Positions 3,122 through 20,632 of a stretch of DNA of 64,000 nucleotides are shown here, in pieces. A model generated the notes under the pieces. The model was not told the origin of the DNA. It did no database searches and saw nothing but the letters and a program-made list of their open reading frames with translations. This stretch comes from Candidatus Latescibacterota bacterium. GTDB lineage: Bacteria; Latescibacterota; UBA2968; GCA-2709665. The stretch is from positions 4,832,001-4,896,000 of the forward strand of contig OZ241917.1 in the NCBI GenBank assembly GCA_965203805.1, in the 5' to 3' direction. Within the stretch, counting starts at the first letter, position 1, and each line of letters opens with the position of its first letter. The translations under genes and the position numbers were made by a program.

Positions 3122-4195
3122 ATGAAGAACGGGAAGTTCGGTTTCGGGATTATCGGCTGCGGAGTGATCGCCCCCACACATCGCCAGGCCATCGATGCCT
3201 GCGACGCGGCCGAACTCGTGGCGGTCTGCGATACCGACGAAAAGCAGGTCCGGTCGTTTCTCGCCGGCATGGACGGCGCTGCGGCGGGGATTCGCACGTA
3301 TTCAGACTATAGAGAACTGGTCCGGGACCGGAATGTGGACATCGTCAGCGTATGCACGCCCTCGGGGCTGCACTGGGAAGGCGTGACCGCAGCCGCGAGG
3401 GCCGGAAAGCACGTACTTTGCGAGAAGCCGCTCGAAATCGACGCCGGCCGCATGACCGACATGACGGCGGCCTGCCGCGAAGCCGGGGTGAAGCTCGGAT
3501 GCGTCTTCCAGAGCCGCACCAGTCCGGACATGATGAGGGCGCGCAAAGCCATTCAGGACGGCCTGCTGGGTCAGGTGATTCTGGCCGACGCCTATCTCAA
3601 GGACTACCGGTCTCACGCCTACTACCGGAGCGCGGGCTGGAGGGGCACCTGGTCGCTGGACGGCGGCGGCGCCCTCATGAACCAGGGCGTTCACGGCGTC
3701 GACCTTCTCCTCTGGCTTACGGGAAGCCCGGTTGAATCGGTATTCGCGCGGGCAGAGCATAAGGTGCGCGACATTGAAGTGGAAGACACGGCCGTGGCCA
3801 ATCTGAAATTCAGAAGCGGCGCGTTCGGCGCCCTCATCGGCACCACGTCGTGCAACCCCGGCGAAGCCCGCCGCATCGAGTTGCACGGAGACCGGGGCAC
3901 CATCACGGTAAGCGGCAGTTCGATTTCCCGCTGGGCGCACACCCGGGAAGAAGACGGCCGCGCCGAAGACACCGAACCGCCCAAAGCAATCGAAATCGAA
4001 GGCGCGGTGGCCGATCCCGGTGACATCGGCAGCGCCGGCCACGTCTACCTTGTGGAAGACCTTGTCCGGGCTATCCGGGAAGACCGCGACCCTTACGTTA
4101 CGGGCGAATCCGCCCGCGGCGCCATAGACCTCATCCTGGCGATCTACGAGTCCGCACGAACGGGCAGGGAAGTCGAAGTCCGGCACGAAGGCTGA
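3122..4195 (+). CDS. Gfo/Idh/MocA family oxidoreductase
   Basis: GIIGCG, CEKP, GGGALMNQGVHGVD. Confidence 0.93.
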   Translation: MKNGKFGFGIIGCGVIAPTHRQAIDACDAAELVAVCDTDEKQVRSFLAGMDGAAAGIRTYSDYRELVRDRNVDIVSVCTPSGLHWEGVTAAARAGKHVLCEKPLEIDAGRMTDMTAACREAGVKLGCVFQSRTSPDMMRARKAIQDGLLGQVILADAYLKDYRSHAYYRSAGWRGTWSLDGGGALMNQGVHGVDLLLWLTGSPVESVFARAEHKVRDIEVEDTAVANLKFRSGAFGALIGTTSCNPGEARRIELHGDRGTITVSGSSISRWAHTREEDGRAEDTEPPKAIEIEGAVADPGDIGSAGHVYLVEDLVRAIREDRDPYVTGESARGAIDLILAIYESARTGREVEVRHEG

Positions 4196-4254
4196 ACCGG
4201 GCGGTCCCTGCGCGGCATGCCGTGCACCAACCCCGAAAAGGAACGATTCCCAAT

Positions 4255-5313
4255 ATGGCCAGACAGACCAAACTCGGCTGGGGCATCATTGGCGCCGGAA
4301 TGATCGCGGGTCATTTCAGGTCGGCAATCGACGCGTGCCCCAACGCGGAACTCGTTGCGGTCTGCAACTATAATGAGGAGAAGGGAAGGAAATTCGCGTT
4401 CGAGTCCGGCGGCATCCGGTTTTACAGACACTATCAGGACCTGGTCGCGGACCCGAATGTGCACATCGCCGGGATCTGCACCCCGTCCGGCATGCACGCG
4501 GACAACGTGATTGCGGCCGCCGGCGCCGGCGTGCATTCCCTTTGTGAGAAACCGCTGGACGTCACGCGTGAGAAAATGGATCGGATGATCGGAGCCTGTC
4601 GCGATGCCGGCGTCAAACTCGGCTGTATTTTTCAGAGTCGAACCAGCGACGAAGCGATAAGGGTGCGAAACGCCGTCAGGAACGGAGATCTGGGCAAACT
4701 GGTGCTGGCCGACGCCCTGTTGAAGAATTACCGCTCACAAGAGTACTACGACAGCGCCGGATGGCGGGGAACCTGGAAACACGACGGCGGCGGCGCGCTG
4801 ATGAACCAGGGGGTCCACGGCGTGGATCTCTTGTTGTGGCTGATCGACGACGACGTGGAATCCGTCTTCGCCCGCGCCGAACACAAGGTGCGCGACATCG
4901 AGGTGGAAGATACCGCCGTTGCCACCATCAAATACAGGAGCGGCGCGTTCGGAACGCTCATCGGCACCACTTCCTGCAATCCCGGAGAGGCGACGCGGCT
5001 TGAAATTCACGGTGATTCCGGGACCATCACCATGAGTGGTACCGAAATCACGCGCTGGGCCACCACCACCGAGGAAGACGGACGCGCGGTTGACGCGTTT
5101 CCACCAAGGCAGATCGGCGCGGCCGGGAACGTGGGGACCGCCAGCGCCGTCGCGCCCGGCCACGGCTTTCTGGTAGACGACATCACCCGCGCCGTCCTGG
5201 AAGACCGGGAGCCCCATATCCCGGGGGAGTCGGCGCGGAAGTCGGTGGACCTGATCCTGGCCATCTACGAATCCGCACGGACCGGACAGGAGATTTTCAT
5301 GGACTCGTGGTAG
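4255..5313 (+). CDS. Gfo/Idh/MocA family oxidoreductase (tandem paralog of the upstream gene)
   Basis: GIIGAG, CEKP, GGGALMNQGVHGVD; long stretches identical to 3122-4195 (e.g. VESVFARAEHKVRDIEVEDTAVA). Confidence 0.93.
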   Translation: MARQTKLGWGIIGAGMIAGHFRSAIDACPNAELVAVCNYNEEKGRKFAFESGGIRFYRHYQDLVADPNVHIAGICTPSGMHADNVIAAAGAGVHSLCEKPLDVTREKMDRMIGACRDAGVKLGCIFQSRTSDEAIRVRNAVRNGDLGKLVLADALLKNYRSQEYYDSAGWRGTWKHDGGGALMNQGVHGVDLLLWLIDDDVESVFARAEHKVRDIEVEDTAVATIKYRSGAFGTLIGTTSCNPGEATRLEIHGDSGTITMSGTEITRWATTTEEDGRAVDAFPPRQIGAAGNVGTASAVAPGHGFLVDDITRAVLEDREPHIPGESARKSVDLILAIYESARTGQEIFMDSW

Positions 5314-5326
5314 GCGTCATGAACCA

Positions 5327-5468
5327 AGCGTCCTGTCCCAAAAATACCTCACCATTCTTCCGACGATACATCCCGTCTCGCTGCGTACCTCCCGCTCGCC
5401 GACCCTACCCATGTCGCCTGCTGGCGGACAAAACGCCTTTGGATCTAACCTACTGGGGGACAAGGGCT
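5327..5468. mobile_element. Possible degenerate MITE
   Basis: Imperfect terminal inverted repeats AGCGTCCTGTCCC (5327-5339) and GGGACAAGGGCT (5457-5468) around about 140 bp of non-coding DNA. Confidence 0.3.
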
Positions 5469-5527
5469 ATATCTCTTCCATCATCTTTCATTTTCTCTTC
5501 GTCCTTTTTCTTGCACGCCCAAGAAAA

Positions 5528-5760
5528 CGTCGTTGGCGCGCTTGGCGCCACTTGCGGTGGCAGGAACTGTGAGCAGAGCGTATCTTTGTCTTAGCGACCG
5601 GGAGTCGAGGCCGTGTTCTAATTGGTGGATGATACCCCGTAAGAAAACGTGGTCCAGGGATCTGTGCGGACTTGAGATTGGTGACACCCTTGGGTGATCC
5701 CGTTTAGGAAAGTGATGTGACCGCCATCCCCCCTCCCGGAAACCCATAAGGAGGAGGACA
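5528..5760 (+). ncRNA. Candidate bridge RNA in the IS110 left non-coding end
   Basis: Two parallel modules: CCCGT-AAGAAAA (5636-5647, matches target left arm + core) followed by GGTCC (complement of target right arm GGACC), and CCCGT-TTAGGAA (5699-5710, matches IS right end + core). Exact RNA ends unknown. Confidence 0.7.
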
Positions 5761-5762
5761 CC

Positions 5763-7133
5763 ATGGTTGGCAAAGGTACCCCCAGGAAGTCTCGGAAGCC
5801 AAAGGGTTTGTCCACGGTGCATACGCGTGCTGCCGGTGTTGACGTTGGATCCCGGTTTCACGTTGTTGCCGTGCCTGAGGATTTGTGTGCAGAACCCGTA
5901 CAAACGTATCAGAGTTTTACCGGCGACCTACACCGGTTAGGGGATTGGCTGGAGGCGGTTGGCATCACGACGGTGGCGATGGAATCGACCGGTATCTATT
6001 GGATTCCGCTATTTGAAATCCTCGAAGCCCGTGGCCTGGAAGTGTTATTGGTCAACGCAAGGGATGTGAAGCAGGTACCGGGTCGCAAAACCGACGTCAA
6101 CGATGCGCAGTGGCTCCAGCAGTTGCATCAATACGGGCTGTTGCGTGGTAGTTTTCGTCCAGCGCAAGAGGTGGCCACGTTGCGTGCGTATCTGCGTCAC
6201 CGTGAGGGATTGGTTTCCTATGCGGCCGCCCACATTCAACACATGCAGAAGGCGCTGATGCAGATGAACCTTCAGTTGCACCACGTGCTTTCTGACATTA
6301 CCGGTGTGACGGGTATGGCCATTATGCGGGCGATCGTGGCCGGCAACCACGACCCGCGCCAGTTGGCGAGTATGCGGGATAGACGCTGCAAAGCGCCGAT
6401 CGAAACCGTGGAAGCCGCCTTGACGGGACACTATCAGCCAGAGCACTTGTTTGCCCTGCGTCAGGCCATTGAGTTATATGATATCTACCAGGCCAAAATG
6501 GCCGAGTGTGACAAGGCCATTGAGGCTGCCTTGGCACGCCTGCATCCGGCCGAAGCGGTGTTGCCTGACAGTTCCACCCGGCCCAAGCCACGCCGTCGGA
6601 AGCCGAAGACCAACCAGCCTGGATTTGACATCCACACGGCCATGGTCACGCTGTTGGGCACGGATCTGACCCAGATCCACGGATTTGCACCCTATACGGT
6701 CTTGCGACTGGTCGGCGAGTGCGGCACCGATATGAGCCGGTGGCCCACAGCGAAGCATTTTACCTCGTGGCTCACGCTGTGTCCCGGCAGCAAGATCTCG
6801 GGGGGCAAGCTGCTTTGTTCCAGGACGCGGCGTTCGAACAATCGGGCAGCCACGGTCTTTCGCATGGCAGCGCTCAACGTCGGTAAGACCTCCACGGCCC
6901 TGGGCGCTTTCTATCGACGCTTGGCCGCACGCGCGGGCAGAGCCAAGGCCATCACCGCCACGGCACGTAAACTCGCCGTGTTGTTTTACAACACGTTACG
7001 TTATGGAATCGATTATTGCGATCCGGGCGTCGACGCTTACGAAACGCAACACCGCCAACGAATGCTCAACGGCCTGCGCCGACGCGCGAAAGCACTGGGG
7101 TACGACATCTCATTGGCTGCTTCCCCAACGTAG
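5763..7133 (+). CDS. IS110-family transposase/recombinase
   Basis: DEDD RuvC-like motifs GVDVG, AMEST, KTDVND; C-terminal Tnp domain with KISGGK serine; strong RBS AAGGAGGAGG. Confidence 0.96.
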   Translation: MVGKGTPRKSRKPKGLSTVHTRAAGVDVGSRFHVVAVPEDLCAEPVQTYQSFTGDLHRLGDWLEAVGITTVAMESTGIYWIPLFEILEARGLEVLLVNARDVKQVPGRKTDVNDAQWLQQLHQYGLLRGSFRPAQEVATLRAYLRHREGLVSYAAAHIQHMQKALMQMNLQLHHVLSDITGVTGMAIMRAIVAGNHDPRQLASMRDRRCKAPIETVEAALTGHYQPEHLFALRQAIELYDIYQAKMAECDKAIEAALARLHPAEAVLPDSSTRPKPRRRKPKTNQPGFDIHTAMVTLLGTDLTQIHGFAPYTVLRLVGECGTDMSRWPTAKHFTSWLTLCPGSKISGGKLLCSRTRRSNNRAATVFRMAALNVGKTSTALGAFYRRLAARAGRAKAITATARKLAVLFYNTLRYGIDYCDPGVDAYETQHRQRMLNGLRRRAKALGYDISLAASPT

Positions 7134-7471
7134 TTCCTTAGGAAAGGACCAAAAAGAACGGCGCCTGCCTGCCGAGCAGGCTTCGGCGCAGGCAGGCCGC
7201 TCGGCGCCTGTCTGCGTGCGTGAGACAGCACGCACAGGCAGGCGGGGCCGGTTTTTCCGTGAACTACCTCAGTGGCGCCAATGGAAATTGGATGCCCTTT
7301 CACCGAAACCGCCCATCCCGAACGATGTTGCTGGACGGAGTAGCACGGAAAAACCCCTCCCTTCACCACCTTGCGGAAAGAAGGTCGTCCGGGGAGTTCT
7401 TCCTGGCGGATTCACGTGGGTCCGCCGTTTGTCTTTTGTCCTTGATTTAAGCCGACAGCTTTCGTCTGATC

Positions 7472-7748
7472 GCTAACGGCTGTCGTCATCATACAGGTAC
7501 CAATCGGTCTACAACGGTACGTCCCGACCGGAGAACTACCAGAGCAGAGCGCGCTGATCCGTCAAGCTACGCGGTTTGATTTGCTACTGATGGTGACAGG
7601 CCAGAGTATCCCGTGCATACTGTGAGGGTGTTCGCGCTGTGCATATGGCAGGCCCCGCGCCCAGCGGCGACTTTTGGTTCCTTTTGGTCGCTTCAAAAGG
7701 AACCCGCCGGAGGCAGGGAATTTGGGGAGATGTGGATGTTGAATTTGA
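7472..7748 (+). repeat. 277-bp non-coding structured repeat B, copy 1
   Basis: Ungapped reverse-complement match to 20200-20476; pseudoknot/triplex motif at 7667-7703. Confidence 0.9.
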
Positions 7749-7930
7749 CCTTCGTCTTATAGTTCAGGCTGACGGTTGACAACTTAGGGTTGATTGCTGG
7801 TTTTCTCCGGCCGAATTCAGGCAGCTTATTGCCGGGACGGAACACCGCGTCACGCAGACACATCGAAAGGAACAGCCGGTTGCGACACCCGCAGCCGGCT
7901 GTTCCCTTCGTTCCCCGATGTCGCGCGTCT

Positions 7931-9004
7931 TCAAGCGCGGCAATCTCCCACCGTCACAACCCTTCCCGTTTCCGCGGAGGCGTAGATCGCTTCCACCACC
8001 TCAACGGCGCGAAGTCCGTCCATGCCGGATATCCCGGGAGGTTTCCCGTCCAGAATCGCGTTGACCGTCGCGCTCAGATAGACCCGGCCCGAAACGCCGC
8101 CGTATCCCTCTACCGTCCCCGAGGCGATTCTCAACGTCGTCACCGGGCCATCCGGGAAATCGGGGTGGTCGCTCACCACGAAGACTTCGTCCGCCGTACC
8201 TCCCCAGGCCGGACTCCATGAAACCGTACCCAGGGTGCCTCGAAGGCCGATGAAGAGATCCCTGCCGGCGGGATAGGCCTTCGGTGCGGAATAACTGATG
8301 TCCAGCGTGGCTGTCGCGCCGCGATTGAATCTCACGATTCCGAAACTGTTGTCTTCAATGTCCAGGTGGTGCTGCTGATGGCTCACCATGCCGGTCGCCT
8401 GTCCGACCTCGTCCTGCAGGAACCATCTGAACAGATCGATCCAATGGGTTCCCAGGTTGTGCATCGGACCGCCCCCCGCGATCGCCCGTTGATTCAGCCA
8501 GGGTGAAATGCCATCATCCAGGTACCGAAGGGGGGAGCCCGCCGCGCAACGCCCCTCGAGCGCGACAATCTGTCCCAGCAAGCCGCTGTCCACGAGTTCC
8601 TTGATCTTTCTGGATGCCGGATGCGCGCGCCAGCAGTAGGGCGAAGTCAGCGCCACACCCGCCGCTTCCGTGGCCGCGATCATGCGCCGGATGCCCCCGG
8701 AAGTATCGGCCATCGGCTTCTCGACAATCACGTGCTTGCCGGCCTCCGCGGCCCGTTCCACCGCGTCTGGGCACTCGGCGTGCGGCAGCAGGATCACCGC
8801 GAGACCGATATCCTCCCGCGCGAGAAGCGCGTTGTAATCCTCGTACCCTTCGATCCCGGTCTGACCGCACACCCGCCTCAGATACACCGGATCCGCCTCC
8901 GCGACGGCCCGCACGTCCGTCCGGTCGATGGCGTCAAAATGCGGAAGATAGTCCATGGAATGAAGATGGTGAAATCCGATGATCCCGACGCCGAGCCTCT
9001 CCAT
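7931..9004 (-). CDS. Gfo/Idh/MocA family oxidoreductase
   Basis: MERLGVGIIG, VEKPM, GGGPMHNLGTHWID. Confidence 0.92.
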   Translation of the reverse strand: MERLGVGIIGFHHLHSMDYLPHFDAIDRTDVRAVAEADPVYLRRVCGQTGIEGYEDYNALLAREDIGLAVILLPHAECPDAVERAAEAGKHVIVEKPMADTSGGIRRMIAATEAAGVALTSPYCWRAHPASRKIKELVDSGLLGQIVALEGRCAAGSPLRYLDDGISPWLNQRAIAGGGPMHNLGTHWIDLFRWFLQDEVGQATGMVSHQQHHLDIEDNSFGIVRFNRGATATLDISYSAPKAYPAGRDLFIGLRGTLGTVSWSPAWGGTADEVFVVSDHPDFPDGPVTTLRIASGTVEGYGGVSGRVYLSATVNAILDGKPPGISGMDGLRAVEVVEAIYASAETGRVVTVGDCRA

Positions 9005-9068
9005 CGAATTGCATTCTCCTTTTCTGCCGGCCGCGGCTTTTCCACTCGCGACTCCCGGCGATAAACGT

Positions 9069-10304
9069 TCAGCCACACCAATCCACGATGGCGCGCGCGA
9101 GTACTTCGGCCCCGTCAGCCAGGCTTTGAACGGGGATCTGCTCCTGGCTGGAGTGGGCTACGCCCAGCGTTCCCGCGCCGATCACCACGGCGGGTACGCC
9201 AATCAGATTCGTGTAGAACCACGCATCGCACGACGCGGGCATCGCCCCCACCTCCGCGGCCTGTCCGCTGGCGAGGCAGGCCCGTTCCAGCGTGCGTACG
9301 ATGGGGTGATCGACAGGGACTTCGTTGCAATCGTGCCGGTACATGAACTCCATATCGAAATGGTCCGGGAGCCAGTCGCCTCCCTCGGCCTTCAACACCT
9401 CCTCCATCTCGCGCATCACCTCTTCTTTGGTGCGCGTGGGAAGGAATCCGAGAACGCCCTTGAACGTCGCCTTTCTCGGCGCCATTGCCGGCCAGTCCCC
9501 CGCCTCCAGCGTGCCAAACGTTATGGGCATGGGGTTGTCGTACGCGTCGTAGAGCGGGTGCCCCCGGGATTCCGCCAACAATCTGCCGTGATATCCCTCC
9601 AGAATTTCAATTGCCCGCATGGCTTCCTTCAGTGCGCTTACCGTACGCCCTGCCTGACCGCTGTGACCGGCCCGCCCGTAGACGTTTACCGTGAACCATA
9701 CGGCGCCGCGAATGGAAGGAAGGATCTTCAGTTCGGACGGCTCCAGCACCAGCGCCGCATCGGCGCGGTCGTCCCCTCGCACAAAAGCCAGCGTTCCGTT
9801 GCCGCCGCATTCCTCCTCGATTACCAGGTGACCGATCAGATCCCCCTTGAGCTCGATTCCCATCTCCTTGATCGCGGCGAGCGCCAGATAGAGCATGGCG
9901 GCCTGACCCTTGCAGTCGCACGCGCCCCGGCCGAAAACGACGCCGTTTTCAACGCGCCCGTCGAACGGCCGGTCCTGGCCCGACGATGCCGGCACGACGT
10001 CCAGGTGGGTATTCACGATCAACGACCGCCCCCCGCCGGTTCCATTTCTGACCACCCTCAGGTTCGGGCGATCCGCGTAGGTGATATCCGGCAGCCGGAA
10101 CGAATAGTCGGGGTCCTCCTGAATGGCGTCCGCAACCGGTACCAGCTCGCGTTCGTCCACCACCGCGTGCATTCGCGCGTGCAGCAGGCGCATCGCCTGT
10201 CCTTCGTCTCCGCGCACGGACGGAATGCGGATCAGATCGCGGAGCAGTCCGACGGCGTCTTCCCTGTGAGTCTCGATTGCCGCTCTCAATTGCCGATTAT
10301 CCAA
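9069..10304 (-). CDS. M20/ArgE-DapE family deacylase
   Basis: NTHLDVVP, GRGACDCKG, EEE, GHSG, AHS; probable TTG start after GGGGAG. Confidence 0.9.
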   Translation of the reverse strand: MDNRQLRAAIETHREDAVGLLRDLIRIPSVRGDEGQAMRLLHARMHAVVDERELVPVADAIQEDPDYSFRLPDITYADRPNLRVVRNGTGGGRSLIVNTHLDVVPASSGQDRPFDGRVENGVVFGRGACDCKGQAAMLYLALAAIKEMGIELKGDLIGHLVIEEECGGNGTLAFVRGDDRADAALVLEPSELKILPSIRGAVWFTVNVYGRAGHSGQAGRTVSALKEAMRAIEILEGYHGRLLAESRGHPLYDAYDNPMPITFGTLEAGDWPAMAPRKATFKGVLGFLPTRTKEEVMREMEEVLKAEGGDWLPDHFDMEFMYRHDCNEVPVDHPIVRTLERACLASGQAAEVGAMPASCDAWFYTNLIGVPAVVIGAGTLGVAHSSQEQIPVQSLADGAEVLARAIVDWCG

Positions 10305-20199: not shown

Positions 20200-20476
20200 T
20201 CAAATTCAAGATCCACATCTCCCCAAATTCCCTGCCTACGGCGTGTTCCTTTTGAAGCGACCAAAAGGAACCAAAAGTCGCCGCTGGGCGCGGGGCCTGC
20301 CATATGCACAGCGCGAACACCCTCACAGGATGCACAGGATCCTCTGCCCTGACACCCTCAGTGGAACATCGAACAATGTCGATCGACGGATCAGCGCGCT
20401 CTGCTCTGGTAGCCCTCCGGTCAGGATGTCATTTCGTAGACCGATCGGCGACTGAATGATGAGGACAGCCGTCAGC
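20200..20476 (-). repeat. 277-bp non-coding structured repeat B, copy 2
   Basis: Reverse complement of 7472-7748; motif at 20245-20281. Confidence 0.9.
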
Positions 20477-20632
20477 TTGAACCAGGAGATCAATCAGTGG
20501 ACGTGTGCGCCGTAAATCGGCAGAACCCTGAATGGCGCACGCCTCTCCCGTGGGGAGAGGGGGAGCACAGCGAAATGCCTTCAAGTGATTACAGTATTTG
20601 ATATGATTGATGATACGTGATCGGATACCCAG

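Follow-up and report, generated by a model that had tools for sequence, protein, structure and literature searches.

We found that, in the genome of a Latescibacterota bacterium, a 37-nt motif shows the strongest conservation within two related repeat families, F1 and F2, which together define an undescribed family of structured repeats in Latescibacterota that is spread through one order of these uncultured marine bacteria. Within the 3' domain of these elements, the motif forms an invariant core, of a CGAC type in F1 and of a CGCC type in F2. We hold with moderate confidence that F1 and F2 are structured mobile elements whose 3'-domain motif folds, likely as RNA, into a triplex pseudoknot cap. 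In the literature we found no description of such Latescibacter or sponge repeats, or of bacterial repetitive triple-helix pseudoknots.

The window, by which we mean the whole 64,000-nt stretch that was analyzed, carries the motif at 7667-7703 on the plus strand and at 20245-20281 on the minus strand. Read directly from the window, it consists of GCGAC-TTTTG-GTTCCTTTTG-GTCGC-TT-CAAAAGGAAC, with all 37 letters identical at the two sites, exactly as an earlier sequence-only reading had placed them. That reading had also joined the halves of a third, F2-type copy on the minus strand, of which the 5' part runs up to 7143 and the 3' part starts from 5527 (Table 1). The gap is an IS110-family element (5528-7142) with a transposase ORF at 5763-7133 that matches PF01548 and PF02371 and is the only such gene in the genome; its junctions were read in the window against intact F2 copies. 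Uninterrupted genome copies bore out the joined sequence except for one loop letter: 10 of the 12 F2 motif matches in the genome share a single sequence that equals the reconstruction but for the loop, which is TA there and TG in the window copy. The proposal of three instances in two variants was, in contrast, a large undercount: over the genome as a whole, the motif numbers 17 copies of the F1 type and 12 of the F2 type. A search for the full 37-mer with up to four mismatches allowed gave 17 matches in 5.87 Mb (15 copies identical, two with one change), and since the chance expectation for a single 13-mer of the motif is 0.03 per window, the motif is far above chance. The two identical window copies are two members of an interspersed repeat family and form the arms of a 277-nt inverted repeat, I1, that is 87% complementary. 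A location near the 3' end of roughly 300-nt elements, as had been suggested, is correct for F1 (~280 nt), but F2 is longer (~400-450 nt).

Table 1. Coordinates of the F1 and F2 elements, their motif parts and associated features in the window.
Feature	Position	Strand	Comment
F1 element, copy 1	7472..7748	+	arm of 277-nt inverted repeat I1
F1 helix P1 (long-range)	7544-7553 pairs with 7633-7642	+	encloses a variable domain of ~80 nt; RNAalifold
F1 motif, S1a	7667-7671	+	
F1 motif, loop 1	7672-7676	+	
F1 motif, S2a	7677-7686	+	
F1 motif, S1b	7687-7691	+	
F1 motif, loop 3	7692-7693	+	
F1 motif, S2b	7694-7703	+	
N-CGCCG-N' module	7704..7710	+	immediately 3' of stem 2; here N...N' is C...G
F1 element, copy 2	20200..20476	-	motif 20245-20281
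F2 element, 5' part	7143..7470	-	body and two REP-type hairpin inserts
F2 motif, S1a (CGCC)	7163-7160	-	
F2 motif, loop 1	7159-7150	-	
F2 motif, S2a start	7149-7143	-	
F2 element, 3' part	5337..5527	-	left limit (5337) set from the empty site in G001
F2 motif, S2a remainder	to 5520	-	
F2 motif, S1b (GGCG)	5519-5516	-	
F2 motif, loop 3	5515-5514	-	
F2 motif, S2b	5513-5501	-	followed by purine-rich tail
IS110-family insertion sequence	5528..7142	+	splits the U-run of F2 stem 2; TT on both sides
Terminator-like hairpin and T-run	7404..7437	+	spacer between head-to-head F2 and F1

F1 yielded 68 BLAST pieces in this genome, about 20 of them near full length, and was present in all 14 other genomes of the genus that were searched, with 8-29 matches each. 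F2-type motifs were found in four of five genomes tested from other genera of the family, and motif variants also occur in sister genera and in metagenomes, the elements reaching 20-90 copies per genome. In other species the F1 motif was letter-identical in 23 of 25 cases, whereas whole elements are only ~80-88% alike. The exact-anchor scans also returned chance matches, at 54 of 118 genome loci (as read from the listing) and 58 of 62 metagenome loci, and a one-mismatch pattern search of the phylum was swamped by background, giving count enrichments in the family only and no useful loci. Rfam 15, with SAM-II, SAM-V, preQ1-II, HEARO and the known ribozymes among its families, gave no match at gathering thresholds over the whole window; a search at E up to 10 over 5000-8200 produced chance-level matches to unrelated families only, and the elements at nine divergent loci had no Rfam match. 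No tRNA or tmRNA was found. Canonical F1 copies are also present in records labeled Gemmatimonadota and "uncultured bacterium", which we treat as bin labels and not as evidence of transfer between phyla.

The elements are polymorphic for insertion. G001 lacks the whole F2 and F1 block, and neither G001 nor G008 has copy 2 at the orthologous intergenic site; because they are missing at the same sites in sister species, the elements are insertions. Comparison of the empty with the filled site (one clean empty site) revealed no overlap longer than CC. Inspection by eye showed no terminal inverted repeats, and the F2-F1 pair has dissimilar outer ends. Both families are intergenic and modular, and form mosaics with other small repeats. 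Furthermore, the motif is itself a site of repeated insertions by other mobile DNA, both IS110 and MITE-like: a MITE-like element lies immediately after GGCGAC in two F1 copies of this genome, replaces part of the motif in two F2 copies, and is inserted at the motif in at least five relatives (L045, L081, L091, L093 and L182).

Several known kinds of mobile system were considered as the source of these elements and rejected. A TnpB/IscB omega-RNA or guide scaffold does not fit, as PF07282 (TnpB) had no match in the genome while control genomes were positive, no recurrent mobile-element gene was seen beside 42 element copies, and the sequence 3' of the motif is conserved rather than variable, as a guide would be. 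The only recurrent real neighbors were Gfo/Idh/MocA oxidoreductases, the other recurrent "ORFs" being frames over repeats. A retro-element was dismissed on account of the lone reverse transcriptase (RVT_1) gene of the genome, which is far from the elements. Similarly, a RAYT/REP origin was discarded because the two Y1 transposase (RAYT-like) genes of the genome lie beside a different repeat, CCTGCCTGC...GCAGGCAGG.

Comparison of motif variants revealed two stems that cross, the hairpin loop pairing with an upstream segment, together with compensatory maintenance of stem 2 among variants selected for pairing, as in an H-type pseudoknot. Stem 1 is GCGAC/GUCGC in F1 and CGCC/GGCG in F2. In a loop search that did not require complementarity, all 20 distinct CGAC-type sequences carried (G)UCG in the hairpin loop, and GGCG was present in 23 of 24 distinct CGCC-type sequences. 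For stem 2 we wrote our own parser, because a MAFFT alignment of all variant types left the stem-2 strands out of register; this parser requires pairing, so that the resulting table leans towards structure, and in it 259 of 265 cells pair across 23 distinct variants, with two to five pair types at positions 4-13, against 46-67% in slid controls. The non-standard cells were five G.U and also three C-A, which equal G.U on the other strand. Covariation of both stems, which had been claimed from the window, is therefore seen, in stem 2 through many double changes and in stem 1, together with the loop, through a single compensatory change between two clades (CGAC/GUCG versus CGCC/GGCG).

Covariation extends beyond the motif. 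Among 89 distinct F1 copies, N and N' are the pair with the highest mutual information (A:T in 52, C:G in 23, T:A in 7 and G:C in 1, the remainder including at least three non-Watson-Crick combinations and three not listed). The second-highest value belongs to a pair of the long-range helix P1, placed by RNAalifold at alignment pairs 25-34/115-124, which switches between A-U (49) and G-C (29) in the same 89 copies. One-sided changes in the F1 alignment gave G.U in six cells (four pairs) and never A.C, and one invariant G.U pair is predicted in addition.

The feature that distinguishes the motif is the relation of loop 1 to the purine strand. Rich in pyrimidines, loop 1 sets U on A and C on G in parallel with the purine strand, in runs of 4-9 and at a fixed offset per family in 50 of 51 variant rows; the earlier claim that the third strand matches base for base and covaries thus holds in all rows but one. 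The matches (loop 1/purine strand) are UUUU/AAAA, UUUUU/AAAAA, UUUCUU/AAAGAA, UUCUUUU/AAGAAAA and UUCUUUUU/AAGAAAAA. The C of loop 1 is opposite a G of the purine strand, the U-run is as long as the A-run, and the lengths of A-runs and U-runs vary together across all three strands. In the variants whose C is off-centre, the parallel run exceeds the best antiparallel one (7 versus 5, 8 versus 6, 9 versus 7 and 6 versus 5), except in one variant in which the purine tract is the same both ways. When the 16 rows with an internal or off-centre C were compared with composition-preserving shuffles, p was 0.005-0.05 in 13 rows and 0.17-0.34 in three. By our reading of these data, stem 2 continues 3-6 bp past the last triple in every type, which fits a 5' end of stem 2 that lies across the deep groove; the register begins directly after stem 1, which is possible only if stem 1 keeps loop 1 at the end of stem 2 that bears the hairpin loop. 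The relatedness of the variants reduces these observations to a small number of independent events. Taken together, the variants support the pseudoknot and triple-helix reading, as three strands that change jointly in composition, length and register predict 4-9 consecutive triples. The C+.G-C triples among them require protonation.

We therefore propose, on comparative grounds, a fold for the motif in its single-stranded form, most likely RNA of the U-rich strand. It would adopt an H-type pseudoknot in which stem 2 is a hairpin of 10-13 bp and stem 1 arises where the loop of this hairpin pairs with the 4-5 nt that immediately precede loop 1. This pairing would fix the pyrimidine loop 1 to that end of stem 2 which carries the hairpin loop. 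Starting at that end, loop 1 may run down the deep groove, parallel to the purine strand, in U.A-U and C+.G-C triples (four predicted in F1 and eight to nine in F2), and then cross to the 5' end of stem 2 with a linker of 0-1 nt. In F1 the N-N' pair and the CGCCG pentaloop probably cap the far end of stem 2, resulting in a closed, dumbbell-like block. Such a rigid cap could be a roadblock to 3'-5' exonucleases or a recognition handle for a protein, and would serve the RNA of the element or a transcript that carries the element. As a best guess, we take the block to be a compact RNA cap with a role in stability or recognition. The earlier suggestion that the module protects an RNA end or serves as a mobilization signal is likewise a guess.

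A plain long hairpin in a nested stem, with neither pseudoknot nor triplex, is a simpler fold that we consider quite unlikely. Loop 1 would then be one strand of an internal loop or an alternative pairing partner, and the mirror symmetry would come from T-rich low complexity plus descent, in line with the related variants and their few independent events. Energy folding, by RNAalifold and as MFE, does prefer nested structures: in F1, CGGCG pairs CGCCG with a 3-nt overlap with stem 1, and in G000-type F2 loop 1 can pair the purine-rich tail GAAGAGAA. In F1, moreover, CUUUUG could pair CAAAAG, and CTTTTGGT is present twice in tandem. These nested partners are, however, not conserved, as the tails of G016- and G020-type F2 and of all CGAC types cannot pair loop 1, and yet these types retain the parallel match. 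In addition, the off-centre C obeys the parallel and not the antiparallel rule, the A-run and U-run lengths shift jointly in three strands, and the N-N' covariation excludes a nested outer helix, with which it cannot coexist.

The fold could instead matter in DNA, the motif being a site where single-stranded or supercoiled DNA adopts an intrastrand triplex or a hairpin, with RNA irrelevant, an alternative that seems to us possible but rather doubtful. It would use the pyrimidine motif on the motif strand or the purine motif on the other one, a mirror repeat also allowing a purine-motif triplex on the opposite DNA strand, and would act in mobilization of the element itself or as a fragile or target site. 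The insertion polymorphism of the elements, the several strikes on the motif by other mobile DNA (IS110 in the stem-2 T-run, MITE-like) and the extreme letter-level conservation of the motif agree with this reading, as do the folding z-scores, which do not favor the U-rich strand: against shuffles the whole element gave z -0.62 on this strand (no better) and -2.86 on the opposite strand. Intrastrand triplex DNA repeats are also known in bacteria and linked to genome instability, according to one survey (PMC4666352). RNA is nevertheless indicated by helix covariation over the whole 220-450-nt element, as in RNA genes, by the one-sided changes in F1, which give G.U and no A.C, and by three-frame stop runs, which were found on the sense strand in 11 of 13 copies and on the opposite strand in 2 of 13; this suggests that the sense strand is read as RNA. 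No partner enzyme was found for the DNA reading either, the genome having no TnpB, one reverse transcriptase and Y1 genes beside another repeat. RNA-library contigs from four studies contain F1-like and F2-like pieces, although these were kept as contigs that may contain DNA and from which strand and ends are not readable. The contigs diverge from the window after 7747/7748; the depth of the RNA libraries and the uncovered parts of the stretch are uninformative on expression level and transcript ends. A ligand-sensing or protein-binding regulatory pseudoknot of the SAM-II, SAM-V or preQ1-II class, controlling neighboring genes, appears highly improbable. Most of the bacterial H-type pseudoknots that contain major-groove triples are riboswitch aptamers (PMC7583470), and a ribosome-binding site and ATG follow the element within ~110 nt in two low-copy relatives (L096 and L159). 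Against this, there are 20-90 copies per genome with no common neighboring gene, many copies lie between convergent genes, and no riboswitch family matched, even at E up to 10.

The triple-helix pseudoknot fold is rare in bacteria, and the proposed RNA cap resembles several known systems in part. Telomerase RNA shares the H-type topology, and its U-rich loop 1 likewise occupies the major groove of stem 2 alongside an A-rich strand, to which it runs parallel. Its pseudoknot and triple helix are conserved across telomerase RNAs of widely differing size and sequence, and the human RNA has three consecutive U.A-U triples (both in PMC7583470). The motif differs in being bacterial and multicopy, without a template or reverse-transcriptase partner, and in having 4-9 predicted triples and a loop 3 of only 2-3 nt. 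The SAM-II, SAM-V and preQ1-II/III riboswitches have about two U.A-U triples around the ligand and are single 5' leaders, whereas the motif occurs tens of times per genome, is tied to no gene and has no Rfam match. In ENE/MALAT1-type elements, as would be the case here, two U-rich strands clamp a genomically encoded A-rich tract and a long U.A-U run is broken by C+.G-C. MALAT1 and the motif share the order of strands, with the Hoogsteen strand first, the Watson-Crick strand next and the purine strand last. Those elements are eukaryotic or viral and located at the very 3' end, while the motif is followed by conserved sequence past the purine strand and has a stem 1 that would close the pseudoknot. 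Natural RNA triple helices have three known roles, of which that of a "stability element" is one (PMC7583470). We suggest tentatively, as an idea with rather less than an even chance, that the motif could be the bacterial equivalent of the triple-helix stability elements known from eukaryotes and viruses, shielding mobile RNAs, or the messages behind which they insert, from 3'-5' exonucleases. It would then be a self-contained RNA block, made up of the pseudoknot, 4-9 consecutive U.A-U/C+.G-C triples and a capping pentaloop, and carried as a module by mobile, structured RNAs. If so, no natural major-groove RNA triple helix known from bacteria would be longer, and it would be the first such helix to have been disseminated by a family of repeats.

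Among DNA repeats, the closest parallels are TMECO/BoxC and other ITxF repeats (Holder et al. 2015, PMC4666352), which like the motif have three consecutive triplex-capable blocks on one strand and are abundant, conserved and interspersed, theirs being associated with rearranged loci. To be counted in that survey, a repeat needed three blocks of 6-15 nt on the same strand and loops of 1-6 nt (PMC4666352). F2 has blocks of 8 nt, with a 5-nt spacer (GGTCC) between the pyrimidine blocks and 8 nt from the second pyrimidine block to the purine block; the F1 blocks, at 4 nt, are below the 6-nt minimum. TMECO, a DNA triplex of the purine motif, is G/C-rich and has no pseudoknot (PMC4666352), in contrast to our pyrimidine motif (T.A-T, C+.G-C) inside a 220-450-nt element with long-range covarying helices. 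REP/BIME mosaics and MITEs share with F1 and F2 an intergenic, multicopy and modular character and presence or absence between close relatives. F1 and F2 are, however, much longer and more structured than REPs; by eye they showed no terminal inverted repeats, and the single site that was compared gave no clear sign of a target duplication.

For a motif that is present tens of times per genome across a whole order of an uncultured phylum, the signal from comparison is unusually clean. If the triple helix forms in RNA, it would offer biophysics a set of matched triple-helix variants that occur naturally, as well as a new modular RNA cap; if in DNA, it would extend intrastrand-triplex repeats to the pyrimidine motif and tie them to mobile elements and insertion hot spots.

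With respect to neighboring genes, crude greedy ORF calls placed the upstream gene in the same orientation as F1 in 14 of 19 copies, and a downstream gene converging on F2 in 16 of 23; these counts are too weak and noisy to give a clear orientation rule. An intrinsic terminator was rejected as an identity for the motif, as the T-run precedes the hairpin on the motif strand and a terminator scan returned no plus-strand site at the motif. The terminator-like hairpin that separates the head-to-head F2 and F1 is a consensus match only, and is common to the three F2 copies with this 5' extension.

We found the motif GCGAC-TTTTG-GTTCCTTTTG-GTCGC-TT-CAAAAGGAAC at exactly the two window positions where the sequence-only reading had placed it, one copy in each arm of a 277-nt inverted repeat whose arms are 87% complementary. 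Both copies belong to a repeat family, F1; a third instance, from a second family, F2, adjoins the first F1 copy head to head and is interrupted by a 1615-bp IS110-family element, whose transposase gene (PF01548 and PF02371) is the sole one of its kind in the genome (G000). TT stands on both sides of the IS110 junctions, and the break falls within the stem 2 U-run. The joined F2 motif proposed from the sequence alone proved correct when compared with uninterrupted copies: 10 of 12 F2 hits in G000 carry an identical CGCC-GTTCTTTTTG-GTCCTTTTTCTTG-GGCG-TA-CAAGAAAAAGGAC, and the window copy differs solely in the loop (TG instead of TA).

Coordinates of the motifs, elements and neighboring features (window positions unless a genome is named)
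Feature	Position	Strand	Remark
F1 motif, first copy	7667-7703	+	
F1 motif, second copy	20245-20281	-	
F1 element, first arm	7472-7748	+	
F1 element, second arm	20200-20476	-	
N-CGCCG-N' module	7704-7710		
F1 3' tail	7712-7748		GGCAGGGAATTTGGGGAGATGTGGATGTTGAATTTGA
F2 5' part	7470 down to 7143	-	upstream of IS split
F2 3' part	5527 down to ~5337	-	downstream of IS split
IS110-family element	5528-7142		separates the F2 parts
IS110 transposase ORF	5763-7133		
REP-like hairpin repeats	7165-7243		inside F2 copy
Heptad runs	7749-7800		
38-nt palindromic repeat	7808-7845		right edge of F2-F1 block
Gfo/Idh/MocA-type genes	3461-5094; 7931-9076		
Same-site F1 compared	7472-7760; G012:C2:4401712-4402000		
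TMECO/BoxC-like repeat, partial	20530-20560		
TMECO/BoxC-like repeats, examples	upstream of G000 2608393 and 3276402		
RAYT-like gene (Y1_Tnp)	G000 4533812-4534033		
REP-like copy after it	G000 4534127-4534160		
MITE-like element	G000 3456838-3457078; 5049495-5049694; 3241620-3242008; 3249980-3250358		also L045, L081, L091, L093, L182

G000, a single contig of 5.87 Mb, holds 17 F1 motifs (15 identical) and 12 F2 motifs. The elements that contain them number about 20 for F1 (near full length, ~280 nt) and about 20 for F2 (~400-450 nt). The two families are related along their length: common to both are TCCGTCCAGCAAC and GGCCCC-GCGCC(C/G)AGCGGCG(A/C)C, and in both a long-range helix closes a variable domain. 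Head-to-head F2/F1 pairs occur at six G000 sites with a spacing of 139-411 nt. Every one of the 14 other genomes of the genus that were searched carries F1, with 8-29 matches, and so do a few genomes of sister genera. Two further genera of the family are rich in F2-type motifs; among 168 genomes of the phylum, an exact anchor search confined genuine motifs to the order. Most carriers are labelled Candidatus Latescibacterota and a few bins otherwise, and we do not count those other labels as signs of transfer between phyla. The Rfam search that had been proposed returned no Rfam 15 family matching the elements, and we found no description of such elements in the literature searched.

Comparison with relatives shows the elements to be insertions. 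Where G000 has the second F1 copy, a different small repeat stands in G001, the closest relative, and in G008 the two flanking genes lie ~19 nt apart. The F2-F1 pair is missing from G001, in which window position 5325 is followed immediately by 7832; in most other species the gap at this site is just 20-75 nt, and G012 has F1 and a ~65-nt remnant of the F2 tail. The overlap at the empty site is CC at most, and no terminal inverted repeats were seen by eye in the elements. We found no partner enzyme for them in G000, which has no TnpB gene and only one reverse transcriptase gene; its RAYT-like Y1 transposase gene is flanked by a repeat other than F1 or F2. The same-site F1 copies of G000 and G012 are 87% alike between flanking genes that are 92-95% alike, with the differences concentrated in the variable domain, which suggests copy replacement or conversion between paralogous elements. 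The repeat block lies between tandem paralogous Gfo/Idh/MocA-type oxidoreductase genes; direct repeats D1 and D2 are 70-72% alike. By crude neighbor clustering, such oxidoreductase genes stand beside elements at 10 loci. The palindromic repeat at the right edge of the F2-F1 block (CCGGCCGAATTCAGGCAGCTTATTGCCGG...) has ~25 further copies in G000.

Within the genus the F1 motif is nearly invariant (23 of 25 copies from other species are identical), and the fold test was therefore built on variants from other genera and metagenomes. Across 23 distinct variants, 259 of 265 stem 2 cells are paired, and positions 4-13 show 2-5 pair types, a count that leans towards structure as it comes from a parser selecting for pairing; sliding the partner as a control gave 46-67%. 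On these comparisons we regard stem 2 as real beyond doubt. Stem 1 shows a single compensatory change between two clades (CGAC/GUCG versus CGCC/GGCG), and its complementarity is kept in 20 of 20 CGAC-type and 23 of 24 CGCC-type distinct sequences, recovered by a search that did not require it.

Motif variants by type and carrier (S2a and S2b, the strands of stem 2, S2b being the purine strand; L, variant loci from other genomes or metagenomes; G015 to G020, genomes of relatives)
Type	Carrier	Loop 1	S2a	S2b
CGAC	F1	UUUUG	GUUCCUUUUG	CAAAAGGAAC
CGAC	L094	UUUUG	GUUACUUUUC	GAAAAGUAAC
CGAC	L095	UUUUG	AUUACUUUUC	GAAAAGUAAU
CGAC	L047	UUUU	CCCCACUUUUG	CAAAAGUGGGG
CGAC	L159, L188	UUUUUC	CCCGGUUUUUG	CAAAAAUCGGG
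CGAC	L048	UUUCUUC	CCCGGUUAUUUG	CAAAGAACCGGG
CGAC	L273	UUUCUUC	CCCGAUUCUUUG	CAAAGAAUCGGG
CGAC	L223	UUUCUUC	CCCCUUUCUUUG	CAAAGAAAGGGG
CGAC	L236	UUUUCUUG	CUCCUUCUUUGG	CCAAAGAAGGAG
CGCC	F2	GUUCUUUUUG	GUCCUUUUUCUUG	CAAGAAAAAGGAC
CGCC	other G000 copies		GCCC...	...GGGC
CGCC	G015, G019	CUUCUUUUUC	GGCCUUUUUCUUG	CAAGAAAAAGGCC
CGCC	G016	CUUCUUUUG	UCACCUUUUCUUG	CAAGAAAAGGUGA
CGCC	G020		CCAACUUUUCUUG	CAAGAAAAGUUGG

In 50 of 51 variant rows, loop 1 and the purine strand of stem 2 match in parallel, and each family has one fixed offset. Where a G lies off-centre in the purine tract, the C of loop 1 is placed according to the parallel (Hoogsteen) rule and not at the antiparallel Watson-Crick position (UUUCUU on AAAGAA; UUCUUUU on AAGAAAA; UUCUUUUU on AAGAAAAA). 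Parallel runs compare with the best antiparallel runs as 6:5, 7:5, 8:6 and 9:7, with a 6:6 tie in L223, where the purine tract is the same in either direction. When loop 1 was shuffled with its composition preserved, the observed match was reached with p values of 0.005-0.05 for 13 of the 16 rows that have an internal C; the remaining 3 gave 0.17-0.34. The register also follows changes in length: in G016 and G020 the A-run is 4 instead of 5, and the Watson-Crick and loop 1 U-runs are both 4; L159 and L188 have an A-run of 5 instead of 4 and five U in loop 1; and an extra C-G pair of stem 2 at the junction in L236 is accompanied by an extra U at the start of loop 1. The compensatory changes in both stems and the parallel match of loop 1 thus support the pseudoknot with a pyrimidine third strand that had been read from the window.

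In every case stem 2 extends 3-6 pairs past the last predicted triple, with stem 2 lengths of 10-13 and loop 1 lengths of 4-10 by our reading. By the established geometry of H-type pseudoknots and A-form RNA, in which the deep groove is bridged (Pleij), such a span would put the start of stem 2 on the opposite side of this groove, close to where the third strand stops, and a linker of 0-1 nucleotide is enough. The register starts right after stem 1, which requires loop 1 to be anchored by its 5' end at the loop end of stem 2, the job of stem 1; in a nested fold the start of loop 1 would lie about nine pairs off.

Against the pseudoknot, energy folding favors nested alternatives. In F1, CGGCG pairs with CGCCG, overlapping stem 1 by three nucleotides, and F2 of the G000 type folds into a long hairpin with loop 1 paired to a GAAGAGAA tail. 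Such partners, however, lack conservation: the parallel match persists in every CGAC type and in F2 of the G016 and G020 types, none of which has a tail able to pair with loop 1. Directly 3' of stem 2, F1 and many other variants carry N-CGCCG-N', whose outer positions, six apart, are the top mutual-information pair of the F1 element and show all four Watson-Crick combinations (A:T 52, C:G 23, T:A 7, G:C 1 and at least 3 non-Watson-Crick among 89 distinct copies, 3 not being listed). Between N and N' lies the segment to which the upstream CGGCG pairs in energy folding, so their pairing is incompatible with the nested helix. They would form one extra pair at the far end of stem 2, closing a CGCCG pentaloop, an explanation that is not complete; their covariation appears to fit the pseudoknot conformer and to count against the nested one. 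We consider a plain nested hairpin with accidental mirror symmetry quite improbable; nested folds may still be real alternative states.

The motif might instead act as a triplex site in DNA, either serving mobility or giving rise to fragility, a reading we hold to be possible but unlikely. The elements are insertion-polymorphic, and the motif has been struck repeatedly by other mobile DNA, including the IS110 element in the window F2 and a MITE-like element right after GGCGAC in several F1 copies (in G000 and other genomes) and in two F2 copies. On the other DNA strand, the mirror repeat also permits a triplex of the purine motif; PMC4666352 notes this for several classes of bacterial intrastrand triplexes. 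Folding of the complete F1 element does not surpass shuffles on the U-rich strand (z -0.62) and gives z -2.86 on the opposite strand. One-sided changes in the F1 alignment gave G.U in 6 cells (4 pairs) and never A.C, with one further invariant predicted G.U pair; stem 2 has 5 G.U but also 3 C-A cells, so the strand call is a tentative one. F1- and F2-like pieces occur in RNA-library contigs from four studies (marine, sponge, coral and one coded organism), which carry no strand, ends or level and whose libraries may contain DNA. In the 90 nt after F1, stops in all three frames occur on the sense strand in 11 of 13 copies and on the antisense strand in 2 of 13, and GCTGA occurs 32 times on the sense and once on the antisense strand of F1 flanks, an indirect sign that the sense strand may be present as RNA and kept clear of ribosomes. 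TGANNGC/GCTGA heptad runs flank F1 on the sense strand only (13 F1 copies in G000) and are what places these stops downstream of it.

Our comparisons show the family, its spread by insertion, the covariation and the register rules; that the triples form, that the molecule is RNA and what role it plays are inferred. As the most likely mechanism, to which we give about an even chance, we propose an RNA function. The U-rich strand would be made as RNA, alone or within a neighboring transcript; its 3' domain would fold into a pseudoknot with a triple helix and an end cap, and this rigid block could stabilize the RNA against 3'-5' exonucleases or offer a handle for recognition. The predicted fold works like the telomerase RNA pseudoknot and the SAM-II, SAM-V and preQ1-II aptamers, but the motif matches none of these models and comes without template, partner gene or fixed gene context; a riboswitch-like regulator seems to us highly improbable. 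By strand order and triple-run length, ENE/MALAT1 stability elements are nearest. According to PMC7583470, human telomerase RNA has three consecutive U.A-U triples and the listed riboswitches two, and stability is one of three known roles. As genomic objects, intrastrand-triplex repeats (TMECO/BoxC) and REP/BIME mosaics are nearest, from which F1 and F2 differ by their pyrimidine motif, pseudoknot and long structured body.

Several other repeat modules accompany the elements. GC-rich hairpin repeats (CCTGCCTGC...GCAGGCAGG) behave like REP elements: their 10-mer core occurs 163 and 151 times in G000, one copy lies right after the RAYT-like gene, and F1 and F2 carry them optionally, at two fixed points; RNA-library contigs skip these inserts (joints 7165/7243 and 7205/7242). 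A MITE-like element of ~150-190 nt with GAGACGGTAGACGG-type ends lies repeatedly inside or in place of the pseudoknot motif, which looks like its preferred target; in F1 it starts directly after GGCGAC. The F1 3' tail recurs at 23 further G000 loci, standing alone behind other modules, namely GCTGA runs and a MITE-like element ending ...CTCCCGTCTCACCGCC, and intergenic regions are therefore mosaics of shared modules. Finally, CCCCCTCTCCCC...GGGAGAGGGGG...GGGGGGAGAGG repeats resemble TMECO/BoxC, an enterobacterial purine-motif intrastrand-triplex repeat, as described in PMC4666352; if this likeness is true, G000 would hold two different kinds of triplex-prone repeats.
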